A stretch of 52,037 nt of DNA, taken from positions 1 to 52,037 of the IMG/VR virus record IMGVR_UViG_3300036828_000332. One strand, 5' to 3'. The position numbers were made by a program, and so were the translations under genes. Under the pieces are notes generated by a model. It was not told the DNA's origin and made no database searches. It saw only the letters and a list, made by a program, of their open reading frames with translations. Source of the DNA: a virus. Its lineage: Duplodnaviria > Caudoviricetes. Below, one piece after another: positions 6,711 through 47,738 of the stretch. Within the stretch, counting starts at the first letter, position 1. Each line of letters opens with the position of its first letter.

Positions 6711-7997
6711 TCATTGAATAGACACCGCCGTTCCGATCCGGGCCGCGACATCCGCAGGGAATGCCGTGCGGCCCCGAAGCAGGTTTTCAAGATGCGACAT
6801 CTGGGAAATCGTAAGCGCATCGACCGGCTGCATGTAGACCCTTGCTGTCATGTCCGGCTTAGAGTGCCCGAGCTGCGCCTGCACTGCCTTCAGGTCGAGG
6901 CCTACGAATTGGGAGATTGTCGCGAAGGATCGCCGCAGCATCTGGAAGTCGATATCCTGAACGGGAATTTTAGCGCGTATTGCGGCTGGCCGCAGCATAC
7001 AGCGGACAATATTGGAATAGATTGCCGGTCGGCCATCACGCTGCCCCCGGAATAAGAGATCCTTCTGGCCGATACCTTCCGTGGCAATCCAGGCATGGAC
7101 CTCGCCCGCCAGTTCGGGCGGAAGATGGATAAACCGGGACCTTCCGGTCTTGGTGCTCTTGACGTTTCTCCAGCGGTCGAATGCCTTGTTGATATGTATC
7201 CAGGTAGGGCCGACATCTGCCACCGTGACCGCCATCAATTCGGCGGGCCGGGTTGCGCCAAGGATCGATACCCAAACGATCAGCCGGTCCCGGATGTTCA
7301 ACTCATTGAGCAAAGCCGGAAGGTGCTGCGGCGGGAACACACTCTTATCCGGCTTGATCGCCTGTTTGGGAACCCTCAGCCGGACAGTCACCGAGCGCGC
7401 CGGATTCCGCGGTGTCATTCCCCGCTCCAAGGCGAGGTCGAAGATAGCGCGAAGGTTCGTTAGGACGTGTGTGGCATACGAGGTACTGACGCCCTTCTTC
7501 AAGGTCTTTTTTCGCAGATCCTGGCGATGAGCCAGCGATCCCATGAACCGCTTGAGATCCTCGGGGAGAATCGAATCAACTGCCCGCTGGCCCAACGCGG
7601 GAATGATTGAGTTATTGAAGATTGAGCGCGTGTTGCGGCGCGTGCCTTCCTCCCAGTCAACTTCCCGCATGGTCAGATAGTCTTCGCAAAGGTCTGCTAC
7701 CTTCGCGCGCCCAGTGGTGGCTACCGCTTGCCCGGCTTGCCGCCGCAACCATTCACGGTGGATATCCTCTGCTTGTCCCTTGGTGGGAATCTCTACCTTG
7801 GTTCCGATGATGCGCTTGCGTTGCTGCCGGCGCGTAGTGCCATCCGGCTTCGCCACAATGACGTGGTAGAAACCCTTCCACTTCTTTTCGCGCTTGCCTA
7901 CGAGTTCTACCCATCCGTTCTGATGGCTCTCGCGGTTGCGATGCGCCGCGTTGTAGCTGGCGAGATCGGGAAGAGGTGTTGCGATCTTGTTGCTCAC
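6711..7997 (-). CDS. int: Tyrosine integrase
   Basis: TRPAEL, LRRSFAT, QLGHS and VYMQ catalytic motifs; 428 aa with N-terminal arm-binding region. Confidence 0.95.
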   Translation of the reverse strand: MSNKIATPLPDLASYNAAHRNRESHQNGWVELVGKREKKWKGFYHVIVAKPDGTTRRQQRKRIIGTKVEIPTKGQAEDIHREWLRRQAGQAVATTGRAKVADLCEDYLTMREVDWEEGTRRNTRSIFNNSIIPALGQRAVDSILPEDLKRFMGSLAHRQDLRKKTLKKGVSTSYATHVLTNLRAIFDLALERGMTPRNPARSVTVRLRVPKQAIKPDKSVFPPQHLPALLNELNIRDRLIVWVSILGATRPAELMAVTVADVGPTWIHINKAFDRWRNVKSTKTGRSRFIHLPPELAGEVHAWIATEGIGQKDLLFRGQRDGRPAIYSNIVRCMLRPAAIRAKIPVQDIDFQMLRRSFATISQFVGLDLKAVQAQLGHSKPDMTARVYMQPVDALTISQMSHLENLLRGRTAFPADVAARIGTAVSIQ

Positions 7998-9110: not shown

Positions 9111-9388
9111 GCCGGATCTCCCCAATCGAATTCTATGGTGTAGGCTGTCAGCGGGCGGTTCGGCTGGCCATCCGGTCTGGGGCCTGCTGTCGATTCCATG
9201 CGATAGAACTGGATGGCCTCTTCGAGCGTCGGGAATTGGCGCGCCAGATCCCGGCGCTCGGTGGCAATTACATGCACGAATCTCTTGTCGCCATCCGCAA
9301 TCGGAGTCGGATCGTAATCCACAACGTAGAGGCCGTCAAGCTCCGTGGGCTCGCCGCTGTGCAGGCCGATGAGGCGCAGGGTGATCAT
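9107..9388 (-). CDS. Hypothetical protein
   Basis: Operon position; C-terminal RPDGQPNRPLTAY. Confidence 0.7.
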   Translation of the reverse strand: MITLRLIGLHSGEPTELDGLYVVDYDPTPIADGDKRFVHVIATERRDLARQFPTLEEAIQFYRMESTAGPRPDGQPNRPLTAYTIEFDWGDPA

Positions 9389-9401
9389 GTAAACCAATCT
9401 T

Positions 9402-10277
9402 TTAAGCCGCGCGCCTGCTCAACAACTTTAAGTACCGAGCCCACGCCTTTCTTGCAGCGTTGCGGTAACTAGACTGTTTTACCTTTGGCCTCTGGCTCCA
9501 CTCTTTTAGTTTGCTCGACAGCTCACGCGTATCGTCGTTTGGGTCTGGATTGCTCTCGTTCAAAACCTCACCCCAAAAGCCAGACGCCGCCTCGGCATCT
9601 GTTGACCACGCAGACAACATTTCCGCAACTACACTCGGCTTGCCGATCATCCAGACATGTTTGACAGGTTTCCGCCCTGCGTGTTTTGAGGAAACGTTAC
9701 TGATGGCATCCAACCAAAGAGCAAACTCCCGATTTGAGCCTTCCTGAAAATACAGCCCGTGATCCCTGGCGACGAACAGTATCGTTCGGTCATCCCCCTC
9801 CTCCCGCTGAAGGTCTCGACGAAAGTAGTCGATCCCCTTGGCTACCTTGCCGAGAAAGGCGGGGGCCAGACCGGCCAACTCTTTGTAGTCAGCCACGTAC
9901 ACACCAATCTTGTCGGTGTTGGTTCTTGCCGCCATGGGGTTGTCGAATAGATCGAATAGTATCGCCGCATCGTCCATGGATGTCAGCGAGTACCTATTGA
10001 TCGTCACACCCAAGTTTTTCGGAAAGGCACCCGCATCACAACCGGCCAGAACTGTAGAAGTGTGCTGGCCGTCCGCGCGCCACTCTCCCTCCTGGCCGTC
10101 GATGATAGCCATCGACCAACATGGTGAATTAAAGCCTTCTTTCTTTAAGCGGTTCCTGAAGAAGGCCAACCTTGACTCTTTAAGTAGACGCTCCCCCGGA
10201 AGGGGGCGCATCGTTGCCACTTTCTGCGCCAGTTCCGGGGTAAGTGGAACAAGTTCCGAGCTGATCTTTCGTACCAT
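9402..10277 (-). CDS. ParB-like (DGQH-motif) domain protein
   Basis: LTPELA...ADGQHT motif; GGAG RBS. Confidence 0.7.
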   Translation of the reverse strand: MVRKISSELVPLTPELAQKVATMRPLPGERLLKESRLAFFRNRLKKEGFNSPCWSMAIIDGQEGEWRADGQHTSTVLAGCDAGAFPKNLGVTINRYSLTSMDDAAILFDLFDNPMAARTNTDKIGVYVADYKELAGLAPAFLGKVAKGIDYFRRDLQREEGDDRTILFVARDHGLYFQEGSNREFALWLDAISNVSSKHAGRKPVKHVWMIGKPSVVAEMLSAWSTDAEAASGFWGEVLNESNPDPNDDTRELSSKLKEWSQRPKVKQSSYRNAARKAWARYLKLLSRRAA

Positions 10278-28970: not shown

Positions 28971-31900
28971 TTAGCTCAAGGCCGTGAGCGGCTCCTGCAT
29001 CGCGGCTGCCGTGGTCAATCGGCTGTCGCCTGCCGTGGCCGCCGAGGCCGACGCCATGGCAATCGCCGACGGGTTTCCCTGAATGGTCTGCAGCGTCAAT
29101 TGCTGGAATTGGTTGTTGATGAGCCCGGCAGCGCCCGGCACGCCGAGCCCGGACCCTGGCGAGGGATTCGCGCCCTGCGCCGTGATGGCGGCGTGTGCGT
29201 ATTGGTAGCTGGTCGTCCCGGTGTAGGGGTTCTGTACCTGCACGCCGCCGTTATAGGTGGGCTGCAATTGAACCCCCTGTGTCGATTGCGCGATGGTGGC
29301 GTTGTACATCGGCCGCGGAAGGTTGGCCGCCTGCCCGCTCGAAAGGGCATACAGCCGCACGAGATCCTGGATGTCCTGCCCGTGAATGCCCACCTGGACA
29401 TTGCCGCCGTATTTCTGGTCGACGATCTGCTGGATCTGCGTGAGTATCTGGCGGTTCGAGATATCGACGCCGTACACCTGTTTGATCTGAGCGCGGATCT
29501 TCTCCTGTTCGGTCTTGATGAAGAGACGCACTGTACCCGCCACGGCTCCCGCCGCTGCGCCGATAGCCCCGCCGATCAACGCGCCAGCAGGACCGAAGTA
29601 CGCTCCACCAATCGTCGCTCCGGCAAGAGCCCCGCCGCCGATATCCATAAGCATTCCACCGACGCCGCCCTTCTGGAGCCCCGCGCCTACGAGGCCCAGT
29701 CCCGCGCCCGTGAGGATGCCGCCCGTGAACCCGAGGCCCGGAAACATCTGCGCGAGTTGCGGACCCATCAGCGCGCCGCCCGCCGTTGTCATCACGGCGG
29801 AGTGTTTCTTCAATCCGCCGCTTATCAGCATTCCCCCGGCGATAGCCGAAAGATTGGCGACCCCTGGGGAAGTCACCACACTGCCAAAGGTTGTGCCGCC
29901 TGTCGAAGTAGTGCCGATGCCGAACTGGTCTTTCAATTTGCTTAAATCGAAGCCTGCAATCCCGCCTCCTTTGGCACCCGCTCCTGGTTTCCCGAGGATG
30001 CCGCCAAGTCCACTTCCGCCACCGCCAGCACCCCCGAGAGCGGCACCGGCAACCTTCGCCATCTCGGACTGTGTTTTCGTGTTGTAATCGGGCTGCTGCA
30101 TCGCTCCGACCGTCAGAGCCCCCATACTGATCGCTCCGAGGCCAAAGGGGACCGCCGCGCCACCGAACAGGGCTCCGGCACCGGAGACGCCCGCGGGCAC
30201 CCCAGGAGCCATCCCACCGCCACCCATACCAGCGAGTTCTGGCAGGGCTATCTCCGGGGCGGAAACCGCACTGAGCCTAGTAGGCAGACCGGCGAACTGA
30301 TCCATGCTGAAAGCGGGCGCTCCTCCTGTCGCAACCTGGACGGCGACATCCGCGCCGCCCAACTGCTTAAGCGCCTGCATGACGCGCGGTACGTAGGCTT
30401 GCGTTTCGCGAGGCAGCGGAGTTCCCCTGCGAACCGCGCGATCATAAGCGGCTGGCCCCATGTTGTATGCGGCCAGCGCGGCCGACAGATCTCCCGGGTA
30501 GCGCTTCATGAGCTGGCCGAGATAGCGCGCACCGCCCGTCACGTTCTGGAGCGGGTCGGTTACATCGGTAACGCCCATGTCGCTCGCCGTCCCGGGCATC
30601 AATTGCATGAGGCCCCTCGCGCCTTTCAGGGATCGCGCTATGGGATCCCCTGCCGACTCCCCGCTGATGACTGCTCGAATAATCTGCGGTGAAACGCCGC
30701 TGGCGGCACTGGCCTGCTGAATGATGCTGCCATACCGCCCACCCCCGCCGCCCGCCATGCCCCAACCCGTTGCCAGTGACGGCGCAGGGATGCCCATGGC
30801 CGCCAAGCCGCCGCCTTCCCCCGCACCGCCCGCCGCCGCGAACTGCTGGACGGCCAACAGGAAATCCTGCGTGGCCTTGTTGAACGCATCCACGCCCACG
30901 ATGAAAAGATTGGCCGGCTGCACCATCTTGGCTGCTTCCGTTGTTTCGTAAGCCGGTTTGAAGTCGCTAAGGCCCAGCCCTTCCGGAATGAAGCTCGCCG
31001 GAGGCGCGCCGGGTGGCCGTGGTGTCATTCCCTTTTGAAAGAGCGCGCTAATGATTCCGCCGCCGCGCGAGTATTGCACCTCGGGTCTTCCGTATCCCGC
31101 CAGTTCCGTAGCCGACTGCGCTAGGGTCGAACTGAAAAGCTGTTTGGCTTCCCCGAGAAACAACTTCTTGAATACGTCGCCCATGGCCTGCCCGATGGTC
31201 TTGCCCTTCTGCGTGAAGGCATCAAAGATTTCATCGAACTCACCCTTGAAGGCTTCATAGATCCGCTTCTGGTCTTCGATGATGATGTCGTTGGCTTTCT
31301 TCCAGCCCTCAATCCGGTACTTCTGCGTCTCATCAACCGCCTTGATGTCGATCCCCTTCTGTTTTCGGATTACTTCATCCTTACGGGCCTGAATCAACGC
31401 GTCCACTTCGCCGGATGTGTATCCCTGCTTCGCGAAGTCCGCGCGGTGCGCGTTAATCATCGCGACTTCCTCGTCGAGAACCACCTGCAATTCGCCCTTT
31501 TGCTGCGCCGCCACTTCCTCGTTGGATTTGATACGCAACTCCGTGATGCGCGCGAGATTCGCTATCTTCTTGCGCAAGTCCTGTTCGTCGGCGGCTTCGA
31601 TATAAAGAATCTGCGCGTCGTAGGAGCCCTTAATCCGCTCCTGGTTCTGCTTGGCAAGGTCGGTGATCCGCTGCCTTTCTTTCTCGATCACCTTGGAGTC
31701 CATTTCAATCTTTTGCGCTGCGGTGAGCTGATCGCTGAGGCGTTGCGCGGCCGCTCCAGTGATGAGCTTGTCGTGCATCAGCTTGTCGAGCTTCTCGAAG
31801 AGTTCCTTGTATTTGAAAGCCACGGCTTCAACCGGAGAACTGAGAGCCAGCAGGAGGGTCTTACTAGCCGCGAGGCTCCATTCGTCGACTTGGGCCTGCA

Positions 31901-33212
31901 CATCGTCCAGTTTGTCTTTCAAGTTCTCTTGGCCGGGCTTGCCAGTTCCCATGGTCAGATCGGGAACCTTGGCGCCCTTGGGTAGCAGGCCGCTTTTCTC
32001 GGCCAGGGTGGAAATCGTGCTCTGCATCGTCTCCCACACGGTTTTACCCCAACCCACCGCTGAGTCCTTGAGCTTTTTGGCCTGTTCGGGAAAGCGATCC
32101 GCGAGAATGACACCGATGCCCGCGACACCCGCCGCCACAGCCAGAGCCTCCGGGCTCATGAGTGCCAGTACCCCGGCAAGCGATCTCAGAACCGCAACGG
32201 CAGGTCCCACCACACCCGGCACAATTTTCATGACCAGATTGAACGCCCCGAATGCCACGCTTAACGCGACAACATTCACAATCACTTCCTTAACCGGCTC
32301 GGGCAGATCCATGAGCCACTGCGCGAATGCCGCCAGGATCTTTAAGACGCCCATCACCTCTTCGCCCAGCTTCGAGAACGCTCTGCCAAACCCCTCGTCG
32401 CTCATTATTTTTTGGCGCAACACGTCGAAGGCGTCTCCAAGGTTCTTGAGCATTTTGGCTAGGTCGGAAATCTGCGCGCCCGCGCCTCCGGTCTGGTCTT
32501 TCATGGCCTTGAGCATGATGGCAATCGTTTCCGGTCCCGACATCACGCCTTCTTTCAGCCACTTGCGAACCTCGTCGGTAACAACCGGCCTGTTGAGTTG
32601 GGCCGTCATAGCCTGCCGCAGAGCTTCCATTACCTGCACGCCCTGTTTTGGCAACGCCCGCATCAGGTCCTCGGCAGTCAGGAATTCCTTGTTCATGATG
32701 CGCCCGAAGAGGCGCACGATCGTTCCGACGTTTCCTATTTGCCCGCCCATCGCCGTAACCTGGTCGGTGATGATCTTGAGAGTGGCCGGAATGTCTTTGG
32801 CTTCGAAGTTGAATCCGGCTAATTGGCGCGCCGCCTCCTGCAGGTCTTTGAAGCTGAAGATGCTCTGCGAGGCAACCTCGCGGATACCTTCCATCACTTT
32901 CCTAGCGTCGTCTGCATTGTCAACAAACTGCGCCATCATCATCTGGGCACGGCCCATTTCCGAACCAACTCGGACAAGCTGCTCCACCATGCGCACGATC
33001 CCCAAGCCCGCCAGCGCATTGGTGAGGCCTCCGAAAGCGCTGATGGTCTGGTTTACCGCGACGTTAACGCGCCCCAGGCCCGCCGTAGCCTGCGCGGACG
33101 CCTTCTCGCTGGTGGGGCCGGTCTGCGAAATGGCCTGATTCAGCGCGTTGACGTTCTGCTGCGCCGTCTGGCTGTTGAGATCGACCTGGATGTAAATGTT
33201 GTTAGCGGCCAT
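28971..33212 (-). CDS. Tape measure protein with internal lytic transglycosylase (SLT) domain
   Basis: 1413 aa, helical, A/G-rich; ESAG...GARGLMQLMPGTA...AAYNMG...ETQAYV. Confidence 0.95.
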   Translation of the reverse strand: MAANNIYIQVDLNSQTAQQNVNALNQAISQTGPTSEKASAQATAGLGRVNVAVNQTISAFGGLTNALAGLGIVRMVEQLVRVGSEMGRAQMMMAQFVDNADDARKVMEGIREVASQSIFSFKDLQEAARQLAGFNFEAKDIPATLKIITDQVTAMGGQIGNVGTIVRLFGRIMNKEFLTAEDLMRALPKQGVQVMEALRQAMTAQLNRPVVTDEVRKWLKEGVMSGPETIAIMLKAMKDQTGGAGAQISDLAKMLKNLGDAFDVLRQKIMSDEGFGRAFSKLGEEVMGVLKILAAFAQWLMDLPEPVKEVIVNVVALSVAFGAFNLVMKIVPGVVGPAVAVLRSLAGVLALMSPEALAVAAGVAGIGVILADRFPEQAKKLKDSAVGWGKTVWETMQSTISTLAEKSGLLPKGAKVPDLTMGTGKPGQENLKDKLDDVQAQVDEWSLAASKTLLLALSSPVEAVAFKYKELFEKLDKLMHDKLITGAAAQRLSDQLTAAQKIEMDSKVIEKERQRITDLAKQNQERIKGSYDAQILYIEAADEQDLRKKIANLARITELRIKSNEEVAAQQKGELQVVLDEEVAMINAHRADFAKQGYTSGEVDALIQARKDEVIRKQKGIDIKAVDETQKYRIEGWKKANDIIIEDQKRIYEAFKGEFDEIFDAFTQKGKTIGQAMGDVFKKLFLGEAKQLFSSTLAQSATELAGYGRPEVQYSRGGGIISALFQKGMTPRPPGAPPASFIPEGLGLSDFKPAYETTEAAKMVQPANLFIVGVDAFNKATQDFLLAVQQFAAAGGAGEGGGLAAMGIPAPSLATGWGMAGGGGGRYGSIIQQASAASGVSPQIIRAVISGESAGDPIARSLKGARGLMQLMPGTASDMGVTDVTDPLQNVTGGARYLGQLMKRYPGDLSAALAAYNMGPAAYDRAVRRGTPLPRETQAYVPRVMQALKQLGGADVAVQVATGGAPAFSMDQFAGLPTRLSAVSAPEIALPELAGMGGGGMAPGVPAGVSGAGALFGGAAVPFGLGAISMGALTVGAMQQPDYNTKTQSEMAKVAGAALGGAGGGGSGLGGILGKPGAGAKGGGIAGFDLSKLKDQFGIGTTSTGGTTFGSVVTSPGVANLSAIAGGMLISGGLKKHSAVMTTAGGALMGPQLAQMFPGLGFTGGILTGAGLGLVGAGLQKGGVGGMLMDIGGGALAGATIGGAYFGPAGALIGGAIGAAAGAVAGTVRLFIKTEQEKIRAQIKQVYGVDISNRQILTQIQQIVDQKYGGNVQVGIHGQDIQDLVRLYALSSGQAANLPRPMYNATIAQSTQGVQLQPTYNGGVQVQNPYTGTTSYQYAHAAITAQGANPSPGSGLGVPGAAGLINNQFQQLTLQTIQGNPSAIAMASASAATAGDSRLTTAAAMQEPLTALS

Positions 33213-44800: not shown

Positions 44801-44872
44801 TTTGACTGTAGCTTCATAGGCGTTGGCGAGACCAGGGAGGGAAGCGTGCAGCGTGTTCCCTGGCGTGATCAT
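41849..44872 (-). CDS. terL: Terminase large subunit (lambda gpA family), intein-interrupted
   Basis: RTPYLREI, KGSQVGAT, LFLDEVD, STPT, GVDVQ and RNEALDC motifs; 650 aa after intein removal. Confidence 0.96.
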   Translation of the reverse strand: MITPGNTLHASLPGLANAYEATVKACRMGARPDPKLAISEWADQYRVLTTRSSPEPGMWRTSRTPYLREIMDALMPESPCERVVFMKGSQVGATEAGINWMGYVIHLAPGPMLVVQPTETMAKRNSKQRIGPLIEDCPILSTLVRSPKERDSGNTILAKEFLGGILVLAGANSAKGLRSMAARYLFLDEVDAYPANVDREGEPCDLAIARTSNFRRKKILIASTPTIAGRSRIETFFSQSDQCYYFVPCPRCGVFITLLPEQLQWSAAMPHRAAYRCQDCEKEIFDHEKTIMLAAGEWRSLGLGDGVTKGFHLSSYYSPVGWLSWTQIMRMRDKSMVSPEKLQAFYNTVLGVPWADQGEVPDVDRLYERRELYAMGEVPEGGLVLTAGVDVQVNRIECEVVAWGRNRESWSVDYRVFDGNTNQPEVWAKLAEVLDEEFPSFYGGALRIKKLAVDSGFNTMRVYEWVRRMGSQSVMAVKGETHSHISAFVGAPSFMDVTAGGRIVRGGVRLWPVNTSIGKEELYRALRLNVPDLAAGEIWPAGYCHFPGYGKEFFDQLCAEQLITHTLAGRTTTKWEKRRDRNEALDCFDGETEVLTDAGWSPFANVSNQKLATVELESDAIEFQKPSDLISRNHSGEMIYLTGRRLDILVTPNHRMVTYLPNRNAVIAATPTITLAKDLTQRHQIKLTGRWSATGPCCISIPASSKDDSGLEIEPSRNVKAVDLASFYGWWITEGSAITNHYEGSHRRLVSITQTKTANVEVIAELLDRLPWRFNWNEGVHKFTCTSKQLHNEVIQWGRLQEARRVPLWIKKSGMDVISAFIDAAIAGDGWNQNNGCRAIATICKDLADDYQELFIKLGCAPRIHIRKAAAYSIRGRSGDNTKDQYHVHENAHTKKASLDGGGNGQRGFIGKSVAYDGKVYCATVPNGTLICRRNGQVFVAGNCRIYARAAAAVLRLEVFTDKRWGDIEAALRAGAAVGGKTGLGSKGQTPMPEFRSHGANTDSFLE
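42044..43114 (-). mobile_element. Intein (357 aa) with LAGLIDADG-type homing endonuclease
   Basis: N-terminal CFDGETEVLT, block B VTPNH, GWWITEGS and AAIAGDG motifs, C-terminal VYCATVP...AGN/C. Confidence 0.93.
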
Positions 44873-45423
44873 GCGGCCAGCTTTCCTTCCGAGTAGGCGT
44901 CGAACACCTTGCGCAGCTCATCTTCGAGCAACTGCTGGCACGCGCCGATGTTCAATTCCCCTGCCAGCAGCGGAGCGATGCGCGACGGGATGTTGAAACA
45001 CGCCTCGCGGATGGTGCGGAATTCCTGGAAGCGGGCGTTCTCGACATCCGCGGTGGGCGTGAGATTGCCGACGCGTTCCTCGTAGCGGGTCTTCTTCAGC
45101 AGCGCCTCGTAAACCTGCGTCGATGCCCTGGCGCGGGCATAGGCTGTCGAGCGTGTTTCGTCGGGCTTAGGGATATCGGCGTTGGGGATTTCCGGCAGCG
45201 TGCCGCTGAATTCCACCGGCTTTCCACCGCTGCCGCCGGACGCGGATCGGTTGTTGTGGCCCTTCTCGTGGTGCGTGGTGGCGTGGAACTCCGCCACGGC
45301 TTGATCGAGGTCGTAGAGGCCGTCCGCGCCGGGTGTAATGCGTCCCGCTTGCATGGCAATATGGACCGCCATGCGGCTGCGCTTGAGCGCCTTGGCGAGT
45401 TCGATTTCTCCCACGCGGGCCAT
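44869..45423 (-). CDS. terS: Terminase small subunit (Nu1-like)
   Basis: N-terminal HTH, coiled coil, NIPSRIAPLLA; coupled to terL. Confidence 0.85.
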   Translation of the reverse strand: MARVGEIELAKALKRSRMAVHIAMQAGRITPGADGLYDLDQAVAEFHATTHHEKGHNNRSASGGSGGKPVEFSGTLPEIPNADIPKPDETRSTAYARARASTQVYEALLKKTRYEERVGNLTPTADVENARFQEFRTIREACFNIPSRIAPLLAGELNIGACQQLLEDELRKVFDAYSEGKLAA

Positions 45424-45475
45424 CGCGCTGATTCTAACGTGGAAAACTCTCTTTCACCAAATGCTAAATTCAAGC

Positions 45476-46114
45476 ATGAGCGACGCGATGCCTCTCGACA
45501 CCCAGACTTGGCCGGCAGATCAGGTCGAGCGCTGGCCGCTCTCGAAGCTGGTCCCCTATGCGCGCAATGCCCGCACACACTCCCAGGAACAGATCCGGCA
45601 GGTGGCCGCATCCATGCGCGAATGGGGTTGGACCATCCCGGTCCTGGCCGATGATCGGGGCGGCATCATCGCAGGACACTGTAGGGTGAGTGCTGCGGAG
45701 ATAAATGGCTACGACGAAGCGCCCGTAATGGTAGCCCGCGGCTGGTCGGATGCTAAGAAACGGGCTTACATCATTGCCGATAACAAGCTGAGTCTCAATG
45801 CCGGATGGGACGAAGAACTGCTGGGTCTGGAATTGCTAGAGCTGCGCGAGAGCGGCGTCGATCTTGGATTGACCGGCTTTGCGGGCTCGGAGTTGGCAGA
45901 CCTGCTGCGCGAAGTCGAAGAGGCCCAGCCTCCGGAGTTGCCCACGGGAGAGCGCACGCCATACCGGCAGATCACCTTTACTCTGCACGATGAGCAGGCG
46001 GAATTGGTCGCGCTGGCCATCGCGGCAGCCAAAGCCAAGGGACCGTTCTCGCTGGAATTGAATGAGAACGTCAACGGCAATGCCCTGGCGCGGATCTGCG
46101 AGGCGTACTTATGA
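45476..46114 (+). CDS. ParB/Srx-like N-terminal domain protein
   Basis: LVPYARNARTHS, IIAGHCR and IADNKL motifs; C-terminal ITFTLHDEQ...NGNALARICE. Confidence 0.88.
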   Translation: MSDAMPLDTQTWPADQVERWPLSKLVPYARNARTHSQEQIRQVAASMREWGWTIPVLADDRGGIIAGHCRVSAAEINGYDEAPVMVARGWSDAKKRAYIIADNKLSLNAGWDEELLGLELLELRESGVDLGLTGFAGSELADLLREVEEAQPPELPTGERTPYRQITFTLHDEQAELVALAIAAAKAKGPFSLELNENVNGNALARICEAYL

Positions 46115-46263
46115 ATCTCTATATCGTGCTAATGCGGTCCTGGGACGGCGGTTTTCGGGTCGAGGCTATTTTCGAAACCCAGGAGTTGGCGGAGAAGCGT
46201 GGCCGGGAATTGGGAAATGAATCCAAAGTAGTGATGCTAGAAGCGGTTCTGTTCAAGTTATGA
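46111..46263 (+). CDS. Small hypothetical protein (50 aa, below the track cutoff)
   Basis: MNLYIVLMRSWDGG...; ATGA overlaps with both neighbours. Confidence 0.65.
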   Translation: MNLYIVLMRSWDGGFRVEAIFETQELAEKRGRELGNESKVVMLEAVLFKL

Positions 46264-47048
46264 CCACAGCCAAGGATCTGCGCGTTGCCGTGATCGGATC
46301 CGCCGATGCCCACGCCTTCATGCGCAAGACGCACTATTCCCATAAGAGCGTACAGAATTCGCAACTACACCTCGGGGTCTTTCTCGGGACACGCCTCGAA
46401 GGCGCCATGCAATTCGGACCGCCGCTGGATCGCCGGAAGTTGATCACGCTGGTTCGCGATACGCCTTGGACCGGCTTCCTGGAATTGAACCGCATGGCGT
46501 TCACCGACAACCTGCCGCGCAATTCGGAAAGCCGCGCCATCGCGGTCGCCATGCGCCTGCTGAAGAAACACTTCCCGCAGATTCAGTGGATCGTCAGTTT
46601 TGCCGACGCCACGCAATGCGGGGATGGTACGATTTACCGCGCCTCGGGATTCGTGCTTACCGCGATCCGCGCGAACACCACCATCTGGGGAGGACCAGCC
46701 GGCGAGGTGATTACCAACATCGGCATCCGCACCAGCGGCCAAGCCATCCAGTCGTTTGCCCATGTGGGCGGCAAAGACGTGTACCGGGGCGGAGCCAGCA
46801 TGACGCACTTCCGCGCGGCGGGCTTCCGTCCGCTGAAAGGCTTCCAGCTTCGCTATCTCTATTTCCTTCACCCTACGGCCAGGGAACGGCTGACCGTGCC
46901 GGTGATACCATATTCGGCAATTCGCACGGCAGGCGCTACAATGGCTCGCGGTGTGCGTCCCAGCGTCGGAAGTATCCCGGTAGACACAGCCGCGTTCCCC
47001 GCGGAAGAGGGCGGTTCGACTCCGACCCCGACGCTCCAAGATCCATAG
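46260..47048 (+). CDS. mom: Mom-family (GNAT-fold) DNA adenine modification enzyme
   Basis: HYSH, ELNRMAF, PRNSESRAI, IVSFAD and GTIYRASGF motifs characteristic of Mu Mom homologues. Confidence 0.88.
   Translation: MTTAKDLRVAVIGSADAHAFMRKTHYSHKSVQNSQLHLGVFLGTRLEGAMQFGPPLDRRKLITLVRDTPWTGFLELNRMAFTDNLPRNSESRAIAVAMRLLKKHFPQIQWIVSFADATQCGDGTIYRASGFVLTAIRANTTIWGGPAGEVITNIGIRTSGQAIQSFAHVGGKDVYRGGASMTHFRAAGFRPLKGFQLRYLYFLHPTARERLTVPVIPYSAIRTAGATMARGVRPSVGSIPVDTAAFPAEEGGSTPTPTLQDP
46963..47038 (+). tRNA. tRNA-Gly(UCC)-like element, non-canonical, inside the mom 3' end
   Basis: 76 nt; perfect 7-bp acceptor GCGTCGG/CCGACGC, U73-CCA, TTCGACT T-loop, GG in the D-loop, anticodon TCC. Confidence 0.8.
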
Positions 47049-47081: not shown

Positions 47082-47738
47082 ATGCCTGCATTGAATATCA
47101 CCGAAACGCTTTCTCTCACGCACGCTGTCGTAGCCACCAGCCCGGCGTCCCCCAGCAGCGCCAAAACCGTAAGCAGCGGCCCGGTCAAGATCAACCAGAT
47201 CGGCAACAATGTCTCCAGCGGCATTCAAATCGTGACGACCACTGCCGCGGTCATCAATATCGGAGCAGTGTCGGGAGGCGCACTGGGCCGCTTCGCCATC
47301 AAAAACCTGGACGGCGCGAATGACCTGAGCGTGTTGCCGGGACTGGCCGGACCGGCGTTCCTCACATTGCTGCCCGGAGAAATGGCGCAAGGCCGCTTCG
47401 ACGCCAGCGTTACGGCTCCAGCGGTGCTGACGAGCGCCGCAGCGGGTAGTTCGATTACCGCCATAGCCGTGGCGACCGGTGGCGCCGGCTATACGGTTGC
47501 GCCAACCGTTACCCTGGCCGGCGCAGGCGCAGGCACTGGAGCGGCATTCACAGTGAACCTGACAGGAGGCGCGGTTAGCTCTGTCACTGTGACTGCCGGA
47601 GGGTCCGGGTATCCCAGTAGCGGCGTAACCGCGACATTTACAGGTGGCACCTTTACCACCGCCGCTACGGCTGGCGCGGTCACGGTAACAACGCCAGCCA
47701 CGACGGTGTTGATGGAATACATCGTCTGTGCGGACTAG
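47082..47738 (+). CDS. Thr/Ala/Gly-rich beta protein, virion- or surface-protein-like
   Basis: AAGGAG RBS; two GG(A/S)GY repeats. Confidence 0.75.

Follow-up and report, generated by a model that had tools for sequence, protein, structure and literature searches.

A tRNA-Gly mimic family tied to the phage DNA-modification gene mom and its possible role as a glycyl donor

What is a tRNA-like element doing inside the gene of a DNA-modifying enzyme? The question is raised by a complete 52,037-bp virus genome with direct terminal repeats (Duplodnaviria; Caudoviricetes; IMG/VR record IMGVR_UViG_3300036828_000332), which was analysed at its full length and is called the window below. On its plus strand, a gene for a ParB-like protein, a 50-aa open reading frame (ORF) and a gene of the Mom family follow one another, and a 76-nt element resembling tRNA-Gly lies at the end of mom. 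An earlier note, made from the DNA letters alone, had described a self-contained hypermodification operon whose three genes are chained by ATGA overlaps and which ends in the tRNA-like element. The two overlaps are present in the sequence, at 46111 and 46260, and the element has proved to be real, but it sits inside the Mom ORF, at codons ~235-260. What had served as an end marker is the most informative part of the locus.

The Mom protein of phage Mu moves glycine from Gly-tRNA-Gly onto N6 of adenine in double-stranded DNA (dsDNA), and an on-base rearrangement of N6-glycyl-adenine then yields the carbamoylmethyl group (Silva et al., Nat Commun 2026, PMC13219725, main text). The account of Mu chemistry in the earlier note, which named the carbamoylmethyl product, predates the discovery that the glycine derives from Gly-tRNA-Gly. 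According to the same main text, Mu Mom is selective for tRNA-Gly and refuses glycine-charged tRNA-Ala, and it is suggested to read mainly the acceptor end of the tRNA.

The window copy has all arms of a cloverleaf (Table 1), and its UUCCC loop contains the last two letters of the glycine anticodon. The covariance model R1, derived from the 59 distinct 76-nt elements of alignment A1, finds this copy with 80 bits and E 1.3e-17, which is its sole match in the window. No tRNA is detected in the window by ARAGORN, and Rfam gives for the element only a sub-threshold match to tRNA-Sec (46963-47034, 22.3 bits, E 0.43). The tRNA-Sec model probably fits best because the T stem is extended by one nucleotide or pair. 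A promoter-like pair, TCGGCA-17-TACAAT at 46914-46942 (+), ends 20 nt before the element. It is not claimed as an internal promoter because the -10-like hexamer of the relatives corresponds to conserved MY(K/R)G codons and its distance to the element varies.

The linkage of the element to Mom was followed from both sides. From the protein side, relatives were picked with an alignment of the Mom domain only, its tails removed (A2, 12 sequences), which retrieved 80 viral loci at 49-67% Mom identity. An R1 match on the Mom strand is present in all 80, starting 11-42 nt past the Mom match; one locus has two tandem copies, and R1 gives a single further match among them, of 27 bits and on the strand opposite to Mom. 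From the RNA side, a scan of viral contigs with a 30-nt pattern covering the T arm and 3' end of the element gave at least 119 loci. Among the 119 viral loci listed, 117 show, at a constant spacing, seven bases fully complementary to the 3' acceptor strand, and the element is 76 nt long in 70, 69 nt in 32 and of nearby lengths in the rest. On the same strand and no more than 400 nt away, 112 of them have a Mom domain (108 on the 5' side, 4 on the 3' side), and six of the seven loci without Mom have less than 700 nt of contig upstream. The seventh (L083, 1229-1305) has upstream room and no detectable Mom, with a ParB-N match ~300 nt upstream.

In 596 Gb of prokaryotic genomes, the 30-nt pattern occurs at 35 loci, 29 of which adjoin a Mom domain, the other six including two at contig ends. 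Being nearly absent there, the pattern is therefore not a sequence of ordinary host tRNA-Gly genes. Altogether, the mimic was found in more than 200 viral and prokaryotic loci from many phyla. Within 1.5 kb of the Mom genes of eight other lineages (Mu, Aeromonas pAEv1818 and PX29, and Proteus, Mycobacterium, Enterococcus, Listeria and Bacillus phages), no R1 match was obtained at E up to 10. In Synechococcus phage S-SSM7, R1 picks up a genuine tRNA-Thr only (38.6 bits). The element-less Mom-like gene of that phage (L250, 1053-1367) stands directly after four ordinary tRNA genes (Ile, Thr, Arg and Leu), none of them Gly.

Two cultured phages belong to the family. The tRNA-Gly annotated in GenBank for Salinibacter phage B2_17 (L243, OR896349.1) is a member by its R1 score of 91.9 bits. 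In Psychrobacter phage vB_PmaS_Y8A, the Mom ORF ends earlier and two tandem copies occupy the 165-nt spacer before terS, the gene of the small terminase subunit. The ParB-linked Mom of Y8A is annotated as 'hypothetical', and the available text of the Y8A paper states 'no tRNA genes' and names a different ORF, ORF69, as Mom; Y8A has two Mom homologs. A further arrangement, element-Mom-ParB, is seen in L217, L224, L209, L214, L227 and L235-L238, mostly Chloroflexota/Dehalococcoidia assemblies, where the overlap of element and Mom ORF is at the 5' end of the latter and, with an ATG 6 nt upstream taken as start, keeps the frame used elsewhere. In L217, the element is preceded at a distance of 6 nt by the end of an 807-aa ORF, which lies in an ATGA overlap.

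That the element is a structured RNA is borne out by its relatives. In the ungapped alignment A1, the cloverleaf is 95.8% paired, compared with 74.2% in shuffles, and its covariation score of 0.567 (0.146 when shuffled) was reached by 0 of 500 shuffles, the slid controls giving at most 0.128. The D and anticodon stems, neither of which was used to find or delimit copies, covary in this alignment. When the protein-selected copies were fitted to the model (A3), pairing was 93.4% and the score 0.619 versus 0.142, with both-sided changes in 19 of 22 pairs, T stem included. The acceptor stem is 100% paired in A1 and A3, and in the tails of four related Mom genes the element is kept with its acceptor stem altered on both strands together. 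Because of this conservation and covariation, and not because of any single-sequence fold, we regard the mimic as almost certainly a real, selected, Mom-linked structured RNA.

Its invariant positions are those of glycine identity. Among 71 distinct protein-selected copies, G1:C72, C2:G71, C35, C36 and U73 are each present in 71/71, C35 and C36 having been absent from every search pattern used; G3:C70 is found in 67 of 72 rows. These five elements are determinants of bacterial glycyl-tRNA synthetase (GlyRS) according to the available text of PMC10464925, which also describes a change at position 55 as having no effect on glycylation. At that position, 61 of the 71 copies have G and the window copy has U.

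The remainder of the molecule is unlike a decoding tRNA. In 54 of 59 copies, position 32 pairs with position 38, which leaves a 5-nt anticodon loop; U33 is present in 12 of 71 copies, and position 34 is U in 35, A in 29, C in 7 and G in none. The T stem is lengthened, with the A of a G.A pair in 71/71 and one extra nucleotide or pair before the acceptor 3' strand, and 37 of the 71 distinct copies are 67-70 nt long, with a short linker replacing the D arm. ARAGORN makes eight calls in the 119 viral loci listed (four tRNA-Gly and four undetermined) and five in the 35 prokaryotic loci (four of them tRNA-Gly), and no Rfam family was found at the gathering threshold in eight sources. In its anticodon loop, T stem, D arm and recognition by tRNA finders, the mimic differs from a canonical elongator tRNA-Gly.

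The enzyme itself is clearly of the Mom family. Its GNAT-type domain matches PF25680 over residues 6-219 (E 6.5e-51, 173.3 bits against a cut-off of 27.1), and the protein also matches phrog_1384 (E 1.8e-46) and the Mu Mom structure 8bv8 (E 7.7e-29). Residues R78 and S91 are invariant in A2 and in a larger alignment (A4, 36 sequences). They are the likely equivalents of the essential Mu residues R111 and S124, because the 8bv8 chain, an S124A crystal, has Ala opposite S91 with an offset of 9, which makes R111 the Arg of ELNR. A helix-turn-helix (HTH)-like insertion of Mu Mom (residues ~175-209) is required for activity (PMC13219725, main text); the window protein shows in this region a weak second alignment stretch (query 174-215 versus chain 181-224, 5.7 bits). 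Beyond the Mom domain, the C-terminal tail of the ORF is the in-frame translation of the tRNA-like element. Upstream of its ParB-Mom-element unit, locus L006 carries another Mom paralog, a divergent one (1735-2361; PF25680, 118 bits), which in the tree described below clusters with the element-less Moms of Proteus and Listeria phages. In the partial genome of B2_17, the Mom domain (2292-2939) upstream of the tRNA-Gly is spread over two reading frames, with positions 1-137 and 139-204 of the hidden Markov model (HMM) in separate ORFs, through a frameshift, a sequencing error or pseudogene formation.

A quick IQ-TREE analysis (SH-aLRT support, midpoint root) included 145 of 222 Mom domains, after removal of partial domains and of rows sharing 75% identity or more with a retained one. 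The window Mom falls in clade A (83 rows, support 99), which joins the element-less Moms of Mu/pAEv1818 and PX29/Enterococcus in a group of 87 rows (support 99). Clade B (45 rows, support 100) and a Chloroflexota clade (8 rows, support 94) are separate from clade A. The element is either old, with loss in Mu-type lineages, or was transferred between clades; this tree is compatible with one gain as well as with several.

The second protein of the locus resembles ParB. It scores 18.7 bits against Pfam ParB_N (PF02195), under the cut-off of 26.3, the proteins of L003, L006 and B2_17 reaching 24, 42.4 and 48.1 bits, and it matches phrog_620 with E 5.4e-48 and Spo0J (1vz0) with E 1.4e-4. Its AlphaFold (AF2) model has a pLDDT of 89, and Foldseek places this model with Noc (7ng0, E 6.5e-8, TM 0.53/0.56) and also with ParB-CDP/CTP structures 6sdk and 7bm8. 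The model thus predicts a ParB/Noc-type N-terminal domain with the adjoining helical domain, so that the ParB-N assignment of the earlier note holds for the fold and for phrog_620, although not at the Pfam threshold. The GERR motif of Spo0J is replaced by GHCR in the window protein and by GHGR, GHLR or GNGT in relatives. A C-terminal domain of ~60 aa is the best-conserved stretch of the clade-A alignment A5. It has no known family in Pfam, and an Atlas search leads to viral hypothetical clusters only.

The same note had proposed a co-occurrence survey, and the survey agrees with its suggestion of a linked pair: in 77 of 78 protein-selected Mom relatives with upstream room, the gene immediately upstream, on the same strand, is ParB-like (the exception is L128). 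In 32 of 35 non-redundant pairs, the end of the ParB-like gene and the start of mom overlap, usually by 4-29 nt as judged with heuristic start codons. Among the viral pattern loci listed, where clades were assigned by a motif regular expression, the clade-A C-terminal domain accompanies clade-A Moms in 36 of 41. With clade-B Moms, this domain was undetected and ParB-N alone is found in 42 of 50. The ParB HMMs were built from clade A and missed divergent partners in the prokaryotic loci. In the nearest relatives of the window Mom (64-67% identity), ParB stands 1.5 kb off in L123 (ParB 7163-7771, Mom 9331-10005), and none was detected upstream in L128/L055 and L120. The tight ParB-Mom coupling is loosened in the sub-lineage of the window, which also bears the insertion of the small ORF. 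A complex prediction for ParB and Mom gave a score of 0.53, versus 0.02 for the best control, with at least 83% of contacts agreeing between runs and a partner pLDDT of at least 83. Of 80 solved complexes, 58 reach the mark used in such predictions, as do 2 of 110 mismatched pairs; at scores of at most 0.60, it is reached by 7 of those 80 and by both mismatches.

Taken as a whole, the module is best explained as an adenine-hypermodification unit with three conserved components: Mom as the glycyl-transferase, a DNA-binding protein of ParB type and, encoded at the mom 3' end, the tRNA-Gly mimic. Since Mom uses Gly-tRNA-Gly as co-substrate (PMC13219725, main text), we consider it rather probable, by analogy with the non-proteogenic tRNA-Gly of S. 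aureus, that the mimic is a phage-encoded glycyl donor dedicated to Mom. Host tRNA-processing enzymes would excise the mimic from the operon transcript, and the host alpha2beta2 GlyRS would charge it with glycine, as we infer because every known GlyRS determinant is kept. Mom would then take the glycine from the mimic to form N6-glycyl-adenine in dsDNA, which would rearrange to N6-carbamoylmethyl-adenine. The non-decoding features, i.e. the 5-nt loop, the lack of a conserved U33, the G.A and extra T-stem pairs and the frequent absence of the D arm, may keep the mimic off EF-Tu and the ribosome, and momylation would thereby be spared competition with translation. The ParB-like protein probably would bring or hold Mom on phage DNA near the packaging machinery.

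Several observations weigh against this proposal or parts of it. All three E. coli tRNA-Gly isoacceptors support Mu Mom, so that a private donor would be unneeded in principle, and Silva et al. regard the scavenging of host tRNA as the phage strategy (PMC13219725, main text). The GlyRS of L. plantarum requires the arms and the whole L-shape (PMC10464925, available text), and D-armless copies with a 5-nt loop may therefore be poor substrates. CCA is encoded in 59 of 71 copies and is missing from 12. Folded alone, the window copy is unexceptional (z-score -0.61): its cloverleaf, at -22.8 to -26.2 kcal/mol, lies above the minimum free energy (MFE) of -27.8 kcal/mol, and the MFE structure differs. 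In the quick tree, the element-bearing Moms do not form one clade apart from the Mu-type Moms. As for the idea of the earlier note that ParB-N is a partner of Mom, the score given above lends weak support to a modelled complex. Finally, the frame of mom within the element is kept open: it is stop-free in 58 of 59 76-nt copies, versus 19 and 41 of 59 for the other two frames and ~50% of shuffles. This conserved stop-free frame suggests some interplay with translation, which the donor model leaves unexplained.

An alternative that starts from this frame gives the mimic a cis effect on the mom message, in place of a donor role or in addition to it. Binding of Mom or GlyRS could feed back on translation, or excision could produce a stop-less mom mRNA and so restrict how much of a potentially toxic enzyme is made. 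In 82 of 93 loci, the element is read through from end to end by the Mom ORF, which stops within it in 6 others and ahead of it in 5; 79 of the 83 read-through loci use the same frame, giving GG[AS][TS]PT, and four copies are in another frame. Where the Chloroflexota order places the element at the 5' end of the Mom ORF, that frame recurs. In Mu, mom is under unusually tight control (Dam/OxyR, C and Com), and no Com-like gene was seen at the window locus. On the other hand, embedding in the Mom ORF is not required, since the element lies between genes in Y8A, in B2_17 and in 5 of 93 other loci. C35 and C36, moreover, are read by GlyRS, whereas Mom is suggested to read mainly the acceptor end (Silva et al., main text), so that selection on these invariant positions appears to act on charging. 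We judge a cis role unlikely; it is compatible with the donor model and does not exclude it. The two may even be joined in a two-in-one mom gene, in which one transcript encodes the enzyme and, in the same codons, a non-decoding glycyl carrier. Excision from the ORF by RNase P/RNase Z-type enzymes would remove the stop codon and switch the message from Mom to cofactor, and leftover translation would be tagged for decay, a built-in timer or dose limiter for a dangerous DNA-modifying enzyme. The lengthened acceptor/T helix of 13 bp, together with its G.A pair, would shield the charged carrier from EF-Tu, and the system would be kept on phage DNA by the ParB-like protein. This fuller scheme we offer as a speculation and consider improbable.

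The remaining explanations do without a link between the RNA and the enzyme, or without an RNA. An ordinary phage tRNA-Gly gene that supplements the translation of glycine codons could stand beside mom by descent only, as might be supposed from the tRNA-Gly calls that ARAGORN makes for a minority of copies, from the GenBank label in B2_17 and from the match of R1 to a genuine tRNA-Thr. Such a gene would hardly combine a 5-nt loop, a rare U33 and a position 34 that is never G with a G.A pair, an extra T-stem pair, an Rfam tRNA score below threshold and, in about half of the copies, no D arm. No other tRNA was found in the window or in the 119 viral loci listed, and the tie to Mom persists across Mom identities of ~25-67%; we hold this explanation to be very improbable. 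Phage attachment sites often copy the ends of tRNA genes, and the module adjoins terminase genes, so a DNA-level site was also considered, either an attP copy of a host tRNA-Gly gene or a packaging signal. It was rejected, as hardly to be believed, on the rarity of the pattern in prokaryotic genomes, where no locus was seen in an ordinary tRNA context, on its adjacency to Mom and on the direct terminal repeats of a record that is rated complete. The whole cloverleaf is kept, including its 5' half, with G-U-tolerant covariation and GlyRS determinants, and the distance and orientation of the element relative to terS vary. The recognisable motif GG[AS][TS]PT..L in one shared frame could, lastly, be read as a conserved C-terminal peptide of Mom with no RNA at all. 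The tandem intergenic copies of Y8A rule out a mere peptide motif, B2_17 likewise has its copy outside any ORF, and the four copies in another frame are translated as GRCDSDPDAP. Compensatory stem changes alter the encoded residues, and third codon positions are no less fixed than first and second ones. This last reading was rejected as the least credible of all.

The features of the locus are collected in Table 1.

Table 1. Coordinates of the ParB-like/Mom locus, its tRNA-Gly mimic and the neighbouring terminase genes in the window, and of the mimic copies of phage Y8A
Feature	Position	Strand	Basis or remark
Large terminase (lambda gpA type), 1007 aa	41849..44872	-	GpA_ATPase 1.3e-89, GpA_nuclease 1.7e-78
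terS, small terminase subunit	44869..45423	-	phrog_57, E 1.3e-19; divergent from ParB-like/Mom genes
Gap between divergent terS and ParB-like starts, 52 bp	45424..45475	.	coordinates
ParB-like, 212 aa	45476..46114	+	ATG 45476, stop 46112-46114
50-aa ORF	46111..46263	+	ATG 46111, stop 46261-46263; ATGA overlaps with both neighbours
Mom ORF, 262 aa	46260..47048	+	ATG at 46260 in ATGA overlap with stop of 50-aa ORF
tRNA-Gly mimic, 76 nt	46963..47038	+	within Mom ORF tail; model R1, covariation
Mimic: acceptor stem, perfect 7 bp	46963-46969 with 47028-47034	+	
Mimic: D-like arm	46972-46987	+	
Mimic: 6-bp stem with UUCCC pentaloop	46989-47005, loop 46995-46999	+	G32-C38 closes loop
Mimic: T arm with G.A pair	47009-47027	+	GGGCGG-UUCGACU-CCGACC
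Mimic: U73-CCA	47035-47038	+	
Y8A mimic copies	L007 3662-3729 and 3734-3802; OQ059336.1 ~7786-7853 and ~7858-7926		intergenic

The earlier note had also read the gap between terS and the ParB-like gene as a shared divergent control region. The spacing is as described, and a simple sigma-70 scan of the gap (45424-45475) found no sigma-70-like site; the control role is putative. Its three-gene module stands as a conserved ParB-Mom unit from which the small ORF drops out. In the relative L002, with ~90% DNA identity on both sides, 12 nt occupy the place of the ~150-nt small ORF; tblastn found no homologue in any other fetched locus, Pfam and PHROG gave no match, and Atlas scores were below 0.9, to be taken as leads only. 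The small ORF appears to be a lineage-specific, accidental insertion of ~150 nt outside the conserved module.

Terminase genes adjoin ParB-Mom in the window, in Y8A (order ParB-Mom-terS-terL), in L003 (ParB-Mom-small ORF-TerL) and in B2_17, whose order is ParB_N, Mom, the annotated 'tRNA-Gly', an HTH protein and a 542-aa protein. After its gpA ATPase and nuclease domains (residues 52-586), the large terminase of the window continues in a long additional region, where LAGLIDADG_3 is matched at residues 815-867; this looks like an intein or homing-endonuclease insertion near the C-terminus. The gene after mom (47082-47738, +) encodes a 218-aa Ala/Gly/Thr-rich protein with weak PHROG matches to structural proteins, and a tape-measure protein with an SLT lytic transglycosylase domain is encoded at 28971-33212 (-).

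Four known systems may be set beside this module. With Mu Mom (8bv8), the window protein shares family PF25680 and the probable equivalents of R111 and S124; Mu, however, has neither a ParB-like neighbour nor a tRNA-like element after mom and uses host tRNA-Gly, and it controls mom through Com, whereas the window mom is coupled to a ParB-like gene. The closest functional analogy is offered by the non-proteogenic tRNA-Gly of S. aureus, which bind EF-Tu and the ribosome poorly and feed FmhB, FemA and FemB, that is, dedicated glycyl carriers for a GNAT-fold aminoacyl-transferase outside translation (PMC7826273, available text). Those carriers have a full cloverleaf, come from normal tRNA genes of the staphylococcal lineage and serve peptidoglycan as acceptor. 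The mimic is phage-encoded, often D-armless, has a 5-nt loop and overlaps the ORF of its enzyme, and its acceptor would be DNA; it is not a member of the staphylococcal tRNA-Gly lineage.

That ParB-like domains accompany phage DNA-modification enzymes, as the earlier note stated, matches the idea of ParB-terminase (ParB-Tls) loci (Iyer/Aravind), in which a ParB-like gene beside a DNA base-modifying enzyme and terminase is predicted to serve packaging-linked DNA modification (PMC4738411, PMC8256090, available text). The window, Y8A and L003 likewise have a ParB-like gene beside a DNA-modifying enzyme and terminase genes. The loci described in the available text of these papers (PMC4738411, PMC8256090) encode methyltransferases and TET/JBP enzymes, with no RNA component mentioned there. 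A ParB-coupled modification module is thus a known kind of locus, and the RNA is its new part. With phage tRNA genes and viral tRNA-like structures, the mimic shares an acceptor/T-arm mimicry and a CCA end that a host synthetase could in principle charge. It differs from phage tRNA genes in being tied to one enzyme gene, in an anticodon loop unsuited to decoding and in being missed by ARAGORN (in the window) and at the Rfam threshold. The 3' tRNA-like structures of plant viruses may also be comparable to it.

A literature search of partial coverage, supplements excluded, gave no account of any tRNA-like element associated with Mom. In the main text of PMC13219725, the terms 'ParB' and 'phage-encoded tRNA' are absent, and a Mom-linked tRNA-like element is mentioned neither there nor in the 2023 preprint, supplements (more than 8000 mined homologs) excluded. 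The mimic is a widespread, previously undescribed tRNA-Gly mimic family tied to Mom. It escapes tRNA finders and Rfam, and many annotated C-terminal tails of Mom are in fact a translated RNA gene. With Psychrobacter phage vB_PmaS_Y8A and Salinibacter phage B2_17 in culture, the donor question is directly testable.

Mom is, through work of 2023-2026, the first enzyme known to use a charged tRNA for DNA modification. Where the scavenging of host tRNA-Gly had been assumed, a large branch of the family, widespread in the environment, appears to come with a specialised tRNA-Gly mimic of its own. If the donor role is true, the mimic would be the first tRNA encoded by a virus and reserved for a reaction off the ribosome, and the second natural case, after the staphylococcal Fem system, in which Gly-tRNA is split between translation and another pathway. 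It would also provide a compact natural minimal substrate, 67-76 nt long and sometimes D-armless, for recognition by GlyRS and Mom.

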